In this document: positions 40,172-52,410 of the stretch, piece after piece | Numbering within the stretch: position 1 is the first letter of the stretch | How the letters are laid out: each line of letters starts with the position of its first letter | NCBI GenBank assembly: GCA_958009085.1 | Contig: OY253670.1 | Coordinates: 620,001 to 684,000 of the forward strand | Direction: 5' to 3' | Source of the DNA: Protoeuglena noctilucae | Lineage: Eukaryota | Length of the DNA: 64,000 bases | Translations under genes and position numbers: made by a program | The notes under the pieces: generated by a model | What the model saw: only the letters and a program-made list of their open reading frames with translations | The model's database searches: none | Told to the model about the DNA's origin: nothing

Positions 40172-41338
40172 ATGAGGGGTCTCCTTGGTGCTGTGGCACC
40201 GGATAGCACGCCATGCTCGTGTGGCTCGCGAGACGTCCAAGGGCAGGCCAGCTGGTGAGGAGACGTCGATGAGGGGACTTCGTTCCACGTTCCTGGCCCC
40301 CGGCGGCCCGCCTTCGTCCGAGCGCGACGGTGCTCGATGCTCTTGCTACATTCTTGCTGCTGACTGCTTCATCGCCTGTCGCCAGGCGCTCGACGGCCCG
40401 CCCCATGTCCGTGCACAGGGCACGGCTGAGGTTTTCCAGCTGCACGGCGCTGAAGGTTCGGATATGGCGGGACGCGCGGTTGGTGCGGATGACGTCGCGT
40501 TCGCGTCGCGCGGCGCGGGTGTCGGCGATGGTGAACATCGACCTCGGGCCGGCGACCCTCCTGGGCACCACCATGGTCCTGTCCGGCATCGCGCTGTACC
40601 AAGTCCGCGCGTCCCGTCCCTGGCTTTCGAGAGACTATGACGTCGTCGTCTCGTCCTTGGCCATCCTGACGGGCGGCATCCTCGTCTTCCAGGGCTGGCG
40701 CCTGGACCCTCTGCTGCTCTTTGGGGAGCTCCTCACCGCCGGCACCGCCGCCGTGTTCGCCGTGGAGGCGCTGTCGCTCCGGGCGCGCGTCATGGACCAG
40801 CAGTCGGGCGACGGGAGGCCCCCAGGGGAGGCAACGGAGGGGCGAATGCCTCGGGAGGACTCTCGCGGGGTGCCCTTGCCGCCTCCGCGACAGGGCTCCT
40901 TCCGCGACTATGCCGAGTCCCGCGGGGCCGCGGCAGATGGGTTTGACGAGCCCCGGGGAGGCCGGCGACCGGCGGAGTGGGGCGAGTGGCCGGAGACGTC
41001 TCGCGAGCCGTGGCGAACGGCCGCTGGCATGGACGGGCGCCGGCGCGAGGGCTTCGCCAGCGGTCCCGCGTATCCAGAGGAGGAGGCCTTCGCGGGCCGG
41101 GGAGCGAGCGCACCTGGCGCCGAGGAGGTGAAGACGTGCTTTGCATGCCCGTTCCCGCACGCCTGCACGCCTTACTGGGTGGCCTCAGCATGCGCGCCGT
41201 GACATCTCCGACGCTGCTTGTATGCAGGTGCGGGCGTTCCCGCCTCCCGCACCACGAAGAGAGGCTCCCAGCAGCGCCAGGGCCCCTGCTGCCAGGCGCG
41301 GGGACGCCGGGATCGAGGAGGTCGGAGACTGGGAGTAG
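40172..41338 (+). CDS. ycf66: Nucleus-encoded Ycf66 with Arg/Ser-rich transit-peptide-like leader; start uncertain (40172 or 40405)
   Basis: MVNID...ALYQVR..RPWLSRDYD...GGILVFQGWRLDPLLLFG matches the Ycf66 N-domain. Confidence 0.88.
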
Positions 41339-46500: not shown

Positions 46501-48184
46501 TTCTACATCGACGACTTCCAGGCGTTCATCGGCCCCACGCTGGAAGCCCTGCTGCGCGTGCTGCGCGCTGCGGACGAGTTTGAAACGCAGGTCCAGGTGA
46601 CGATAGCAGAGAGGAGATGCGCTTGTTGCCCCGGATGTGAGGAATTGGGTCATCTTGTCCCCTGCGTTGGTGTCTAAGGCCCAGTTTCTGGCAGCTCATG
46701 GACTCCTCGCACCCGTCTGACTGTGCAGGTCTTCAACCTGCTCTGCGTGATCGTTGAGCGGGCCGCGGAGGACATCGCACCTTACGCCGGGGCCATCATA
46801 GGCGTCCTGCCCGAGATATGGGACGATGCAGAGGACCAGGCACTGCTGCGGATGCAAGTGGTCGAGGTGCCGACGGGCGCGAGTGAACACCATGCACAGC
46901 TGCTGCTGCACGGCAGGGAGCGACCTGGCAGACGCAGCGTCCCTCGCGTCGCTTCGTCGCGCCATTCCGCGATGTCGCGTGCGCGCGCAGGTGCTCCAGA
47001 AGCTCGTGAACGCGCTGGGCGACAATGCGGTAGGGACGTACGGCGTGGTGATCCCCGTGCTGTCGTACGCCCTGGACATGAATAACAAGGACAGTCTGAC
47101 TCTCGTTGAAGACGCCCTGCAGCTGTGGCTGAGCTGCCTCAGGCAAGGGCGCAACTGCGCGTGTGCCACTCACGCACGCGCAGGGCCTCGCCTGGCACCT
47201 GTGCCACGACGCGCCCCGCCCCTGCCGCCCCGCAGGAACGCCCTCTCGCCCACGTGGCCCCTGCTGGATCTCTTCCCTCGACTTGAGCCCATCTGCGCGT
47301 CGACCACCGAACACGTCCGTGCCGTCACGCAAGTGGCCCAGTCCTGCATGCTCCTGGGGCGATCCGACTTCTTCGCGCGCCACGGCGCGTCCCTCAACGC
47401 CGTCATCTCCTCGCTCGTCGGCGCCGTCAACGAGCGCGGCATGATGCTCCTCATACCCACCCTGGACCTGGCCCTGAAGCTCTACCAGGCAGATGCCACC
47501 AACGTCCTCCTGCAGCCCCTCTCGCGACTCCTCGGCTCCGTGCTCGCGGGAAGGGAGGAGACGACCGTGGTCGCCGCGTCCTTCGACGTGTTCGCCAGGA
47601 TCGTGCTGCAGGGGCCCCACGCCGCCGACGCCTTCTTCGCCCAGGCCGCCGACCGACTCCGCGCCGACCTCGGCGGAGACCTCGCAGGGCAGGCGGGGCC
47701 CTCGGGCCGGGAGGTCATGGACGCGTTCCTGGAGCAGTGGCTGGAGAGCTTCGACGCCATCTCCCGCAAGCGCTCCCGCAAACTCGCCGCGCTGGCCCTG
47801 GCGACCCTGTGCGGCAACCCGGGGCCGGAGGTGCTGCGGCGGCTGGATGTGCTGGTGGCGCACGTCACGGGGGTGCTGGCGGGCACGGAGGGTGCCGGGG
47901 CAGAGGGCGACGCGGTGCAGCTGGGGTACGAGGTGGACCGTCGGGGGAGCGGGGCAGAGTTTGCACAGGGCTACGCGGGAGAGGAGGCGCAGGGGGAGTT
48001 CCAGCGGCGGCAGTGGGTGTACGAGAACGACCTGGCGACGACCGCGTCGCTGTCGCAGCACTTGCGGGCGCAGCTGACGCAGGGACTCCAGGGTCCCGCT
48101 GGGGCCGAGCTCACGCAGGCCCTGGGGCGGCTCGACCCCAACATCGCCGCCGTTGTGCAGCGTGTCATGGCGCGCCCCTCATGA
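43540..48184 (+). CDS. IPO11: Importin-11 / Kap120-like importin-beta
   Basis: IBN_N VRFLAATTLKNVTGRYWR, ARFDYPRDWPTL, LRPCAEAL, FKEAVYNAVG, LRLLVDDWGF; about 13 introns. Confidence 0.9.
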
Positions 48185-48440
48185 TTGGGTCAACTCAGAT
48201 TTTTGTCAACAGAACAGTTGGACTCCTCTTCAGCATTTGCATGGGGCGATTTGCTCAGCCCCGCATTCAAGCGGTGTTTGATGGCTTGTATTACAGCGAG
48301 AGTAGCTGCATCAACACGCATGACCTCCAATGGCATGCCTGGGGAAGCCGAACGATGATCACGGGACGCCCACATGCGTGGCTCCCTGTGCCCACTTTGA
48401 GCCTACTTGGTGCCCAAGTAAGGTAAAAACGGGTCTGCTG

Positions 48441-51019
48441 CTAATCCAACATGAAGAACCTCTCCGGCTGGCGGATGGAGACCAGCGAGACGAGCTTCTT
48501 AAGCACGGCGCCGGGGTCGGCCGGTGGCTGGGGCGCCGCTGCACCCTCGGCGGACCCGGACGCCCCACGCGCTTGGAGTGCGGGCAGGGCCTCAGCCCGC
48601 TGAGGACCAGACATGGCCTTGGCGAGCGCCCCAGCGATGCCGACCTTCCACTGGAGCTTGGTCTTCTCTGCTGAGGCCGCCCGTATCTCCGCTTCCAACT
48701 CGTCGCGCCCGGCGCTGCCCGCCTCCTCCGCCCCCGAGCTCCTCGCATCCCCGTGGGAGGCGTCTCGGTCTCCGGCAGGATCCTGCGGTCGCCAGTAGCG
48801 TCAGCGGGGTAGTTGCGGAATCGGCAGCACCACATGTGAGGCGAGAGCTATGCTAAAGTGCGCATCCAAAAGCGCCCTGCGCTGTCACGCGCCTTCATGT
48901 CCTGGAGCGCCTGGCGAAGAGCCTCGACGCGGCCTCTCTGCGTCGCGAGCTGCGCGGCGAACGCCTCGCGCTGGTCTGAAGCACGCTGGGCCATCGCTTC
49001 ACGGAGCGACAGGGCCACACGACTGTCCACTGCGCGCAGCCGGGCGCGGCGCTCCTCGTTCTCCCGGGCCAGCTGCTCCGCCCGGGCGCGCCGTCGCGCT
49101 TCGATCTCCTTCGCCAGTCGCGCTCCGAAGTCCTAGGCACAGGATGGAACCTCGGGCGCGTCAATGTTGAGTCCGTGGGCACCATAGCCGCAACCCCAGG
49201 CTTCCATGGCCCCACCCGCGAATCGCTCCCGCAGCCGCGTGAGCCATACAGGCGGACGCACCTCGAGCGACTCGGGAAGCTTGGCGTCCGTTTCACTCTT
49301 GGTGTTCAGCAGGTTGCGCCGGAACTCTTTGTACTCCTCCATGCGCCTGCGCCTCTGTGCCTCCCGCACCTCTTGGCTCTTGTCCGCCTGAGGAGGGGAC
49401 ACTTGGCGAACCGTGGCGAATCGTGGGAGCGAATGCGCAGGCGCACACGGGCTGACCTCCATCCGTGCCACACCTGGAGCTGCCAGAGCGACTGAGTCTC
49501 ATGGGACAGGTGCGCCTCCTCCTTTGGCCTAGTGCCCTTGATTCGCCGCCGCATGCCCGCGTTCTCCACGGCGAGCGCGTGGGCCCGCTCCTCCACGTCC
49601 GCCCGTATCGCAGCCGCCTTGCGCCGCCGGGCCTCTTCCACGTCTTCTGGGAGGCCCTGGGACACGAGGCCGAGCAAGCTGTCTTTGACTGACATGCCAC
49701 ACACCCGTGCAACGGTCACACTCCTGCCAGGGTGGAGCGGAAGCGCTTCCGTGCACCTCAGATGGCCTACTCCCGCACGCTCGCCTTGGACTCGAGGCCA
49801 CTGAGACTGGACAGCTTGCGCCGGAAGACCCGGGCCTCGGAAGCGCGCTGCTCCTGCTCGGACTGGCGCCGCTGGCTGACCTCGGCGCGCCTCTCCGACC
49901 GCACCCTCGCGATGTCCTCAGATATCTGAGTGTCGCTGCGGGATTGGACCTCGGACAGGCGCCTCTGCGGGGGACAGCTACGGCGCGGGATGAGCACGCA
50001 CGTGTTTGGTCACTCCCAGGACACGTGGTCCACCCCATCACTCCACCCATCACATCCACTCCACACCTGCAGGTTCTGCCAGGACTCGTCGGCCTGTCGC
50101 ATCGCGGCCTCCCGCTCCGCGCGCGCCTGCCGCTGTCGCCGCTCCCAGGCCTCCTCGAGCTCGGGCGACAGGCGCTTCTCCTCGCGTCCCGACGACACCT
50201 CGGCGATGCGCTGGCGGTACTCGCGCACGGAGGCGCGGTGCTCCTCGAGGCGCGCCTGCCTCACCTCCTGCGGCCCAGCACGAAGGAGAGGAAGTCAGGC
50301 TAGGTCGTAGACCTAGCCGTGAGATGGCATCCGGACGACAGCGTCCCGCGCACCTCGCGCTGAGCTGCCAGCTGCCGCCGCGCTTCCTCCAGCTCGGGAT
50401 CGAGGTGTTTGTTGCTTGGCCTCTGTCGGATGCTGCTGATGTTCCGAAACAGGCTCGTCATTTGCGCCTGACGCTCCTGCACGTGCATCCCAAAGGATCC
50501 TTGGCTGCATCTTCCTCCGCGGCACATCGACATCCGATTCGACTAGCTCATCAAATGATTCAGCTTTAGGTCTGCCAAGAACCCACAACCCACACCCACC
50601 CGCTCCTCCTCCTCCCTCGCAGCCTCGCGCTCCTGGCGGAGGTTGGCCCGCGCTCGCAACACATTCGACGGCAGGCTTGTGGTGGCCTTTGGTTGCACAT
50701 TCTGGAGCTTTTGACGAAACCGAATCGACTCCTGTCTGCGCATCGTCTGCTGCTTCTCCATCTTGGCGCGCTTCCGTGCGAGCTCATCTGCCTTAGCCCT
50801 ATGCTCAGCCCCGGCCCGCCTGAGCATGTGACGATAGCTCGCGAGCTGCGGTCGAAGCAGGAATCGTCTCGCACTTTAGGCCTTCGGCCGCCCTCTGAAA
50901 TGTCCTTAGATGTGCACCAGTGACCACCAAAACCACCGCCCTTTCCCCCGCCCTCGCACCTCATCCACCTCGTCCTCCGGCAAGCCGCCGACATTGGGAG
51001 CAGCGACGATGACAGACAT
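48441..51019 (-). CDS. Orphan charged helical protein with 48-49-aa tandem repeats
   Basis: About ten phase-consistent exons; the spliced product shows a regular period (see findings). Confidence 0.8.
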
Positions 51020-51310
51020 GGTCTCCCGCGGCCGCCGGGGTGCCGGCGAGCTGCGCGGAGCTGGACCACCAGGCCCGGCGTGGGCGGGAACGGACACCAC
51101 CGCTATCTGAAATCATGCAAGAGTGAAATTGCCATCGCCGCGGGCGAGGACATCGCGTCTGCTGGATTTTTTCTTGCCAGTCTTGCGGAACGCAAGTAGT
51201 TGAACTTCACCACTCAATGGACAAAGAGATATCATACTGACGACATCCAGGTGCGCACCTGTCCTTACCTGTGCCTCGCTAGGGCGTCGCACGTTGGGGA
51301 GCGGCGGGGA

Positions 51311-52410
51311 ATGGCCGCTGCGGCTTGTTGCTCGTGCTCGAGCACGAGATCGCTCGGTTCATCGGGGCGGAGGCCAGGTGCGGCTTGTTTGCCCAGCTGG
51401 GGCCCCCATCTAGAGCAGCAGCTCAGGCTGCATGCACCGCGACGCCGCGATGACCGATCTGTTACACAACCCGCGCGCAGTGTGGTGCCGGGATGTGAGT
51501 CAGCGGGGCCCGGGGGCGCTGGCGGGGCGCGGACGGGCGGTCGCGATGGCCACCGCCAGGACGGGCCCGATCGTCGTGGTGGACAACTACGACTCGTTCA
51601 CCTACAACCTCGTGCAGGTGAGCGTGGCCTTTGGGTGTCCGACGCGACCGCTGCCTGCTCTCCGCGGCCATCGGCTGCACCAGCGCGACCGGCGAGGCCG
51701 CAGTACCTGGGGGACCTTGGCTGCGAGCTCGCGGTGTTCAAGAACGACGAGAAGAGCGTGGCGGAGATAATTGCGATGGAACCCAAGGGAATCATGGTAT
51801 CTCCTGGGCCCGGGAGGCCTGAGGACTCGGGAATCTCGTTGGAAATCATCGAGAAGGCGGGCCCGCTGGGCGTGCCCATCTTTGGCGTGTGCATGGGGCA
51901 CCAGGTGCGTGCGGCGCGGCCTCGAAACACGGAACGGGTGCGGTGTGATCATCGCGACTTTTTGCAAAGCCCGTCGTCCCACCGCAGTGCATCGGGCAGG
52001 TGTTCAAAGGGCGCGTGATCCGTGCGCCAAGCGGGGTGATGCACGGCAAGACCTCGCTCGTGTACCACAATAACGATGGTCTGCTGAAGGGTCTGCCGAA
52101 CCCCTTCCACGCGTGCCGCTACCACTCCCTCGTCATCGACCGGGACAGCTTCCCTGAGGTGCGGGCCTGAGGGGCGCTGCTGGCCCCGCCCGCACCGCCG
52201 GCGTCACGCCTCCGCGTAGCAACTGAGGCGACCCGTCGCGCTCTCGCCTCTCAGGACGAGCTGGAGGTGACGGCCTGGACGGAGGACAAGACGATCATGG
52301 GCGTGCGGCACCGGAAGCACACGGGCATTCAGGGGGTGCAGTTCCACCCCGAGTCCGTCATTACGGAATCCGGCGAGCTCATCGTCAAGAACTTTGTCGA
52401 CTCGCTGTGA
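51311..52410 (+). CDS. trpG: Anthranilate synthase beta subunit (class I glutamine amidotransferase), plastid-targeted
   Basis: [44 protein letters not shown]. Confidence 0.95.

Follow-up and report, generated by a model that had tools for sequence, protein, structure and literature searches.

Tropomyosin and nebulin, which bind actin, and tau, which binds microtubules, carry a stripe or anchor motif that repeats at the pitch of the polymer. Two other described systems invite comparison with the gene analyzed here. The CFAP97/KIAA1430 family (Hemingway) is presented as a single domain of 71 to 96 residues per protein, with one protein per motile-ciliated species and conservation across motile-ciliated eukaryotes (PMC3982993). 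Apicomplexan SPM1, one of the filamentous microtubule inner proteins, has 5 to 13 internal repeats and requires at least four of them to localize to microtubules (PMC12905489). The gene that we describe lies in a 64,000-nucleotide stretch of contig OY253670.1, referred to below as the window, and its product is a basic protein of 566 aa and 64.6 kDa (pI about 10.2, net charge +19) built mainly from diverged repeats.

The gene has nine exons on the minus strand (51019..48441) and is supported by RNA contigs from marine metatranscriptomes. Exon boundaries were modeled manually and then compared with the joints found in these contigs. Runs X1, X2 and X3, which belong to one study, contained the joints of all eight introns with 0 differing letters, and run X5, from a second study, contained those of two of the eight with 100% identity. 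The features of the gene are as follows.

51020..51112, minus strand: 5' UTR, RNA contigs extending to 51112 (X2) and 51102 (X3)
50960..51019, minus strand: exon 1, residues 1-20, ATG at 51019, RNA joint 50845->50960
50600..50845, minus strand: exon 2, residues 21-102, N-terminal helical flank and head of unit 1, RNA joints
50354..50476, minus strand: exon 3, residues 103-143, start of unit 2, RNA joints
50067..50267, minus strand: exon 4, residues 144-210, starts of units 3 and 4, RNA joints, modeled as helix-loop-helix
49785..49964, minus strand: exon 5, residues 211-270, start of unit 5, ends at a GC donor, RNA joint
49657..49784, minus strand: intron 5, GC-AG, 128 nt, joint 49655->49784 in X1, X2 and X3
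49474..49656, minus strand: exon 6, residues 271-331, start of unit 6, RNA joints
49262..49387, minus strand: exon 7, residues 332-373, start of unit 7, RNA joints
48893..49132, minus strand: exon 8, residues 374-453, end of unit 7 and degenerate eighth unit, RNA joints
48783..48892, minus strand: intron 8, the second GC-AG intron, 110 nt, joint 48781->48892 in X1, X2, X3 and X5
48441..48782, minus strand: exon 9, residues 454-566 and stop, coding to 48444 with the stop at 48443-48441, non-repeat tail, RNA joint

No upstream ATG was present in the transcript contigs covering the 5' UTR. The joint of intron 5 has four equivalent placements, of which one has an AG acceptor, and that placement corresponds to the GC donor at 49784; the in-phase GT donor at 49778, by which 122 nt would be skipped and two residues added, differs from the joint seen in RNA. 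An earlier reading made from the sequence only had made the repeat period conditional on the GC donor, and the condition is therefore confirmed by the joints of X1, X2 and X3. Intron 8 uses a GC donor as well (48892, between exons 8 and 9). High use of GC-AG introns has been described for GC-rich pelagophytes (10.1101/2024.10.30.620910). The exons carry the signature of coding DNA (GC3 of 0.83 versus GC2 of 0.49, with introns at 0.54 to 0.67 GC), and the locus is a true nuclear gene, both spliced and expressed, from a marine phototroph of high GC content. Its model needs two GC-AG introns, which are missed by standard gene finders and ORF-based protein catalogs; the catalogs searched contain nothing of the gene except read-through ORF fragments that cover four exons.

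Regarding its surroundings, an importin-11 exon neighbors the gene, and an ESM Atlas search with this exon yielded nothing on lineage. The presequences of two plastid-type neighbor genes lack a signal peptide and resemble simple transit peptides rich in R/S/A, which is no more than a hint at the green lineage. An Rfam search for RNA genes in the introns returned one miRNA match at chance level (E 0.17). A duplicated exon-intron block, considered for the two junctions at which WQxLQ is followed by GTGTGG, was discarded, as the similarity ends within about 15 nt.

We are highly confident that the protein consists of seven tandem modules of 48 to 49 residues plus a degenerate eighth. The junction motif words are found at residues 63, 111/112, 160, 209, 257, 305, 353 and 401, and the resulting spacings (48, 49, 49, 48, 48, 48 and 48) are exactly those that the sequence-only reading had counted, so that the period is retained after splicing as seen in RNA. 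The units are placed as follows.

49052..50719, minus strand: seven 48-49-aa units supported by the leave-one-out HMM, introns included, residues 63-400
50719, minus strand: start of unit 1, exon 2
50449/50452, minus strand: start of unit 2, exon 3
50219, minus strand: start of unit 3, exon 4
50072, minus strand: start of unit 4, exon 4
49826, minus strand: start of unit 5, exon 5
49554, minus strand: start of unit 6, exon 6
49324, minus strand: start of unit 7, exon 7, ending at 49052 in exon 8
49051-48893, minus strand: degenerate eighth unit, exon 8

BLOSUM autocorrelation gave peaks at offsets 48 (z 4.1), 96 (z 5.6) and 144 (z 4.75), to be compared with a maximum z of 4.66 over 500 shuffles, and minor peaks at offsets 11 and 33. 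With a leave-one-out HMM, each of the first seven units scored above 500 of 500 shuffles, unit 6 being marginal (9.9 bits versus a shuffle maximum of 9.8). The eighth failed, its score being attained by 270 of 500 shuffles, and thus seven of the eight units originally proposed stand while the last one is degenerate. The peak at offset 96 was the tallest of the autocorrelation. A 96-residue super-repeat was rejected, with identities of 23.0% for same-parity and 23.2% for opposite-parity units, a difference attained by 2,460 of 5,000 permutations.

The repeat is old. Mean pairwise identity between units was 23.1% (range of 12.5 to 37.5% over 21 pairs), and no 144-nt array was found at the DNA level, where the gene is not repetitive. 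Counted within the unit, the introns interrupt it at positions 40, 32, 2, 14, 27 and 21 and are thus out of register with the repeat. On age, DNA and introns alike, these values bear out what had been read from the letters. The constant unit length, kept despite such a divergence and without a repeat in the DNA, points to selection for spacing rather than to recent duplication. No paralogs were detected in the window, since the unit HMM, when compared to 1,114 six-frame ORFs, matched only the seven exon ORFs of the gene itself (next E value, 0.89).

The conserved part of the module is the junction, made up of a helix end, h-R-x-[KRN]-[LI]-x-x-[VILT], a loop of 7 to 9 residues rich in S/P/G/K/E and the cap with which the following helix begins, [LI]-[PSD]-x-[ED]-h. 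Columns 1, 5 and 16 are hydrophobic in all seven units and column 20 in six; column 23 carries a small or hydrophobic residue in all seven, and R occupies columns 2 and 35 in six of them. A helix-cap-like motif (LPEDE) is already present in exon 1. Between junctions there is a charged helix body of ~30 residues, poorly conserved in sequence and fixed in length, and the protein would therefore consist of amphipathic helices in series, each about 41 residues long. These dimensions replace the ~12-aa linker and ~35-residue helix of the initial proposal by a loop of about 9 and a helix of about 41 residues. Exon 4, the sole exon of the repeat region that was folded, without an alignment, was predicted by AlphaFold2 as two helices (2-25 and 35-66) separated by a loop (26-34), with a mean pLDDT of 87 and 56 of 67 residues helical. 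The exon 9 tail gave no confident fold and was predicted as partly helical (mean pLDDT of 60.6). Large hydrophobic residues recur with a peak at 3.67 to 3.7 residues (z of 7.2 to 9.3, with 9.2 to 9.3 at 3.7); by helix, the best period was 3.65 to 3.70 in six of seven and 3.80 in one. The heptad periodicity of 3.5 residues of canonical left-handed coiled coils was absent (z of -0.9 at 3.5), which indicates straight amphipathic helices and not a canonical coiled coil. The hydrophobic stripe is one residue wide, with 19 to 24% large hydrophobic and 38 to 49% charged residues in the helices.

All homology and domain searches were performed exon by exon, with long domain models compared piecewise. 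Pfam hmmscan of exons 2 to 9 separately (exon 1, with 20 aa, was left out) produced no relevant family at an E value of ≤1, the best unrelated matches (E 0.024 to 0.39) falling far below their own cutoffs. The resemblance to CFAP97/KIAA1430 that had been suggested gained no support, as neither that nor any ciliary Pfam family was matched by these exons at the same threshold, and no flagellar Pfam family was found on the 74 window ORFs scanned. Exon 2 compared to longer proteins gave 156 candidates, 0 of them at E ≤0.01, and its ORF (P0001) matched only itself among proteins of near length; exon 9 gave 2,285 candidates among longer proteins and no homolog. A profile of nine in-exon unit fragments (42 positions) was searched exhaustively against 1.84 billion protein representatives and had five matches at E ≤0.001, four of them being read-through ORFs of the gene's own locus. 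The fifth (E 4e-4), a 130-aa repeat protein, was judged unrelated. Scans of JGI metagenomes yielded 592 pattern matches for exon 2 and 599 for exon 4, with 0 confirmed in either case, and the best ESM Atlas score for exon 8 was 0.77, giving no lead. Among PDB chains (phmmer of six of the nine exons and hmmsearch with the unit profile) there was nothing at E ≤0.01, the best match being a pre-60S ribosome factor (E 0.057), and no axonemal chain at E ≤10; similarity to a solved microtubule-binding chain, or to the filamentous microtubule inner proteins RIB43a, FAP45, FAP53, FAP127, FAP210 and FAP363/SPM1, was not encountered in these searches. A literature search for a described family of 48-residue repeats retrieved only unrelated papers. 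Judged by its sequence, the protein is without detectable relatives in the catalogs searched.

The explanation that we favor, with low confidence and at less than even chances, is an elongated protein that binds a periodic partner, in which the junction motifs would act as anchors and the ~41-residue helices as rigid spacers. A helix of about 41 residues would measure ~6.2 nm and the loop of 7 to 9 residues would add up to about 3 nm, so that one unit would span about 6 to 9 nm, and the junctions might be held at this fixed pitch along the partner. If one candidate had to be named, the microtubule lattice would be the best, given a tubulin dimer of 8 nm, although microtubules specifically are an unlikely choice when taken alone. 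The pitch estimate is loose and other partners would fit too; the ~8-nm argument of the sequence-only reading is plausible with the same loose geometry. Basic, E/R-rich helices are typical also of nuclear and nucleolar proteins. The extended shape of the chain, its binding at regular intervals and the choice of partner are inferred, with low confidence. In its most specific and rather doubtful form, the gene would be the founder of an undescribed family of lattice-matched cytoskeletal rulers in a marine picoalga, its junction docking once per tubulin dimer, the charged rigid helix of ~41 residues serving as the spacer, and seven to nine junctions spanning roughly 55 to 70 nm of microtubule.

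The alternative that survives best, although somewhat unlikely, is a self-associating helical rod, with stacked antiparallel hairpins or a segmented homodimer forming a scaffold that is unmatched to any external lattice. The exon 4 helices may also arrange as a hairpin or bundle. The hydrophobic stripe is continuous, if narrow, on every helix, the conserved hydrophobic residues lie on either side of the loop, as in a packed helix-loop-helix corner, and more helices follow beyond the seven units, in the degenerate eighth and in the tail. Foldseek found 0 matches to the exon 4 model in the PDB, and a wide VIA-align search returned only generic helix-kink-helix and coiled-coil chains (Z ≤5.2), the latter outcome being compatible with a rod. 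However, helices so rich in charge and poor in large hydrophobic residues are poor material for a stable core, and their periodicity is 3.65 to 3.7 rather than 3.5. Strict conservation of loop length, as seen here, is unusual among bundle repeats.

A multivalent sticker-and-spacer condensate linker, be it one that links Rubisco in the pyrenoid, as EPYC1 and CsLinker do, or a scaffold that is nucleolar or binds RNA, is improbable. As an orphan tandem-repeat protein of high pI from a phototroph, the product has the general profile of such linkers, the word LPSN, which we take to be part of the EPYC1 repeat, occurs in unit 1, and the best PDB match, although nonsignificant, is the pre-60S factor. 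The FLIPPer criteria include repeating structured elements 20 to 120 residues apart, a range in which the spacing of 48 to 49 residues falls, but they describe proteins with much disorder and only short helices, of about 10 residues (PMC11570498), while exon 4 was modeled as predominantly helical. In addition, acidic residues (D/E) occupy positions 15 to 20 with no obvious transit peptide by eye, and if the spacers were flexible, the exact conservation of their length would go unexplained.

A lineage-restricted gene that is young or evolves fast, with a repeat that lacks a specific partner and a product that is tolerated, loosely functional or structural filler, is very unlikely. The failure of the searches to find a homolog speaks for it, but the repeats are old and have retained their frame, the length of the unit and the residues of the junction, codon usage is biased as in coding genes, and samples from two studies contain the transcript in fully spliced form. 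Least credible is that the product is flagellar or axonemal and related to CFAP97/KIAA1430, or that it belongs to the filamentous microtubule inner proteins. The top VIA-align row (8glv_Ea, a Chlamydomonas doublet-microtubule chain; 21% identity, Z 5.2, rmsd 6.5) could be cited for this, though doublet-microtubule chains were among roughly 50 tied generic helices (Z of 4.7 to 5.2), dozens of them unrelated, and against it stand the missing Pfam and PDB matches and the lack of relatives in 1.84 billion proteins, when axonemal proteins are normally widely conserved.

Whatever its function, this is a well-documented taxonomically restricted gene in which old, diverged repeats have kept an exact length. 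If the fixed pitch of 48 to 49 residues does reflect binding to a periodic polymer, a marine alga would have evolved, independently, a lattice-matched binder of a new sort, with an anchor-and-spacer design that would be clean and easy to dissect and re-engineer.

Compared to known systems, the product differs from CFAP97/KIAA1430 in having seven to eight tandem units and no relatives, versus a single conserved domain. It resembles SPM1/FAP363 in being, as proposed, elongated with short tandem repeats, which in SPM1-type proteins are thought to run along the protofilament, repeat number mattering for binding (PMC12905489). Its units, however, are 48 to 49 residues long and mostly helical, with no sequence similarity in the PDB searches. 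With EPYC1 and CsLinker, whose repeats lie 20 to 120 residues apart (PMC11570498), it shares being a lineage-restricted, basic algal tandem-repeat protein; unlike them, it is predicted to be mostly helical, whereas those linkers are largely disordered, with ~10-residue helices and a transit peptide. The helices also recall the 11/22-mers of exchangeable apolipoproteins, which are E/R/A/Q-rich, amphipathic, proline-punctuated and of ~3.67 periodicity, although the hydrophobic face is far narrower here and the ApoE matches were nonsignificant (E 1.6 to 6.9). There is no homology to tropomyosin (sole match at E 0.69), and the helices here are interrupted by loops, but diverged repeats whose length is strictly constant, together with a stripe that is narrow or an anchor motif that is short, also characterize the actin binders tropomyosin and nebulin and the tau repeats on microtubules.

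GC content is about 67% across the whole window, which contains eukaryotic genes with introns. The repeat gene, modelled by eye as nine exons on the minus strand (51019 to 48441), was then checked against public RNA. In a word search, marine metatranscriptomes contained this stretch at 0.56 to 0.61 of the sampled words, which is the expectation for a run with exons and without introns; DNA runs of one organism, coded A, contained it at a share of 1.00. Eight joints emerged from the contigs of four RNA runs, all matching modelled introns, so that every intron of the model is confirmed: eight of eight were seen in each of X1, X2 and X3, runs of one study, and two of eight in X5, from a second study, with zero differing letters in all contig pieces. 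Two joints, 49655 to 49784 (skipping 128 nt) and 48781 to 48892 (skipping 110 nt), cannot be placed as GT-AG. In both, just one of four equivalent placements has an AG acceptor, and the donor there is GC. The GC donor at 49784 proposed by the sequence-only reading is therefore the one used, and a second GC-AG intron stands beside it (two of the eight introns).

GC-AG introns of the repeat gene, from RNA contigs
49657-49784, minus strand, GC-AG intron
48783-48892, minus strand, GC-AG intron

The in-phase GT donor at 49778, whose use would remove 122 nt and lengthen the protein by two residues, is not the splice form in the RNA contigs. GC-rich pelagophytes have 14 to 17% GC-AG introns, according to a preprint (10.1101/2024.10.30.620910), and a high share may likewise characterize this GC-rich genome. 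Transcript contigs start at 51112 (X2) or 51102 (X3), with no ATG upstream of 51019 within the transcript. The coding sequence of 1701 nt (GC1/GC2/GC3 of 0.73/0.49/0.83, with introns at 0.54 to 0.67 GC) encodes 566 residues with a computed pI of 10.2 and net charge of +19.

All eight introns between 48441 and 51019 (minus strand) are in phase 0, and each internal exon is divisible by 3. Retention would bring an in-frame stop from seven of the eight; intron 6 (86 nt) has none but would shift the frame. A low-depth X1 contig (50822-50979) is unspliced over intron 1, at a depth of 2.2 versus 51.3 for the spliced contig, and may reflect pre-mRNA, intron retention or trace DNA. The exon 4/intron 4 (50053-50072) and exon 6/intron 6 (49460-49479) junctions have WQxLQ|GTGTGG..GGATG in common; as the likeness stops after about 15 nt, donor consensus and chance probably account for it.

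Among the 214 window ORFs of at least 150 aa, the 74 longest were scanned against Pfam, and 11 carried families (PDEase, RabGAP-TBC, ribosomal S12/S23, 2-oxoacid dehydrogenase, MCU, PCO_ADO, ArfGAP, Ycf66_N, eIF3I, importin-11 and GATase); no flagellar family was found among these 74. A nuclear gene at 40273-41199 (plus strand) has a Ycf66_N domain (E of 2e-22) behind an R/S/A-rich presequence, which marks the organism as a phototroph. Such presequences, without a signal-peptide-like core, begin both the Ycf66-like and the GATase genes and hint at a primary-plastid (green) alga. The GATase/anthranilate-synthase-like gene is the divergent plus-strand neighbor, starting within about 90 to 190 bp of the 5' end of the repeat gene, so that the two share a compact bidirectional promoter region (within 51112-51480). 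A 5' intron of the GATase-like gene lies at 51378-51480, with a loose contig end at 51377 in X1 and X2. On the other side, the convergent importin-11-like gene (46802-48440 region) ends at 48184 and repeat-gene contigs extend past 48200, which means that the 3' UTRs of both genes abut or overlap.

In the spliced protein, junction words (a junction being helix end, loop and next helix cap) fall at residues 63, 111/112, 160, 209, 257, 305, 353 and 401, reproducing exactly the spacings counted in the sequence-only reading. Substitution-matrix autocorrelation over residues 21-453 peaked at offsets 48 (z of 4.1), 96 (5.6) and 144 (4.75), the top z across 500 shuffles being 4.66. A 96-residue super-repeat was suspected and was not borne out by comparison of unit pairs. 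When each unit was scored with an HMM built from the remaining ones and compared with 500 shuffles of itself, units 1 to 7 obtained 9.9 to 29.9 bits, a score that none of the shuffles equaled (unit 6 being marginal), while unit 8 obtained -4.5 bits, attained by 270 of 500. The array thus consists of seven solid units (residues 63-400) and a degenerate eighth, which retains the junction pattern at the correct distance and has lost the remainder. Neither flank, at residues 13-62 or at 454-566, forms a unit. Mean pairwise identity among units is 23.1% (12.5 to 37.5%, 21 pairs), the DNA has no 144-nt periodicity, and introns interrupt units at six different positions; the repeat is therefore old, as had been proposed. 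The 1114 six-frame ORFs in the window include no paralogue.

Conserved columns of the unit (units conforming)
Column 1, F/Y/L/M, 7/7
Column 2, R, 6/7
Column 5, L/I, 7/7
Column 8, hydrophobic, 5/7
Column 16, L/I, 7/7
Column 20, hydrophobic, 6/7
Column 23, A/V/L/F, 7/7
Column 35, R, 6/7

A typical helix cap, [PSD]-x-[ED], occupies columns 17-19. Single-sequence AlphaFold2 modelled exon 4 as helix (2-25), loop (26-34) and helix (35-66) with a mean pLDDT of 87, which predicts a helix of about 41 residues, running from one unit's cap to column 8 of the next, and a loop of 7 to 9. The helix-plus-linker unit of the earlier reading is retained in this alternation, with small corrections to its lengths of about 35 and 12. 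The spacing of large hydrophobic residues has a period of 3.7 (z of 9.2 to 9.3), the best period within helices being 3.65 to 3.70 in six of seven and 3.80 in one, with no power at the heptad period of 3.5. Each helix is 19 to 24% large hydrophobic and 38 to 49% charged. The helices would be straight, narrowly amphipathic and highly charged, not heptad coiled coils. It is the junction that is conserved; the helix body varies in sequence and is fixed in length.

Relatives were sought exon by exon, in libraries that may lack protist transcriptome collections, and none was found. Pfam gave nothing meaningful for exons 2-9 singly (E ≤ 1). In a profile search built on nine in-exon unit fragments, 1.84 billion cluster representatives yielded five matches at E ≤ 0.001, four of them prokaryote-style read-through ORFs of this same locus and one an unrelated repeat. 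Word-indexed protein searches (exons 2 and 9 against longer proteins, the exon-2 ORF against proteins near its length) returned only the self ORF, that of exon 2 occurring on 20 contigs, and two JGI metagenome scans returned nothing. Against PDB sequences, six exons and the unit profile reached at best an E of 0.057 (a pre-60S factor), with ApoE and tropomyosin only at E > 0.6; Atlas, Foldseek and VIA-align gave generic results only. The orphan status first proposed holds across these searches, and the protein belongs to a new sequence family, a real and cleanly documented orphan with unusually strict module length, of a familiar general kind (alpha-helical tandem-repeat scaffolds). Protein catalogues hold the gene only as four intron-entering read-through ORF fragments (P0001-P0004), the 566-aa product being absent, which shows how such libraries misrepresent spliced eukaryotic genes.

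Three features together give the strongest internal clue: a short conserved junction, a helix that is unconserved in sequence and constant in length, and a loop whose length has not drifted at 23% identity. This is the pattern of proteins lying along a periodic polymer, such as SPM1 as described in PMC12905489, and one that bundle repeats and flexible linkers show less typically. We tentatively favor, at less than even confidence, an elongated protein of anchors and rigid spacers that would bind a periodic partner. A helical rod packing on itself is rather unlikely. A condensate linker of pyrenoid or nucleolar type is improbable, since FLIPPer linkers, according to PMC11570498, are disordered over most of their length, contain helices of about 10 residues and carry a transit peptide. 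A gene without specific partner is more doubtful still. Least probable is the CFAP97/axonemal version of the sequence-only reading, as Pfam gave no match to the CFAP97 family on exons 2-9, and PMC3982993 describes one conserved domain for its members.

For the anchor-and-spacer protein, a helix of about 6.2 nm and a loop of up to about 3 nm would give a unit of 6 to 9 nm, a range including the 8-nm tubulin dimer. Microtubules would be the best single candidate for the partner, albeit an unlikely one; lattice binding, if true, would sharply raise the interest of the protein. Tropomyosin, nebulin and tau also lie along periodic polymers, and what the repeat protein would share with them and with SPM1 is the pattern of a conserved short anchor at fixed spacing.
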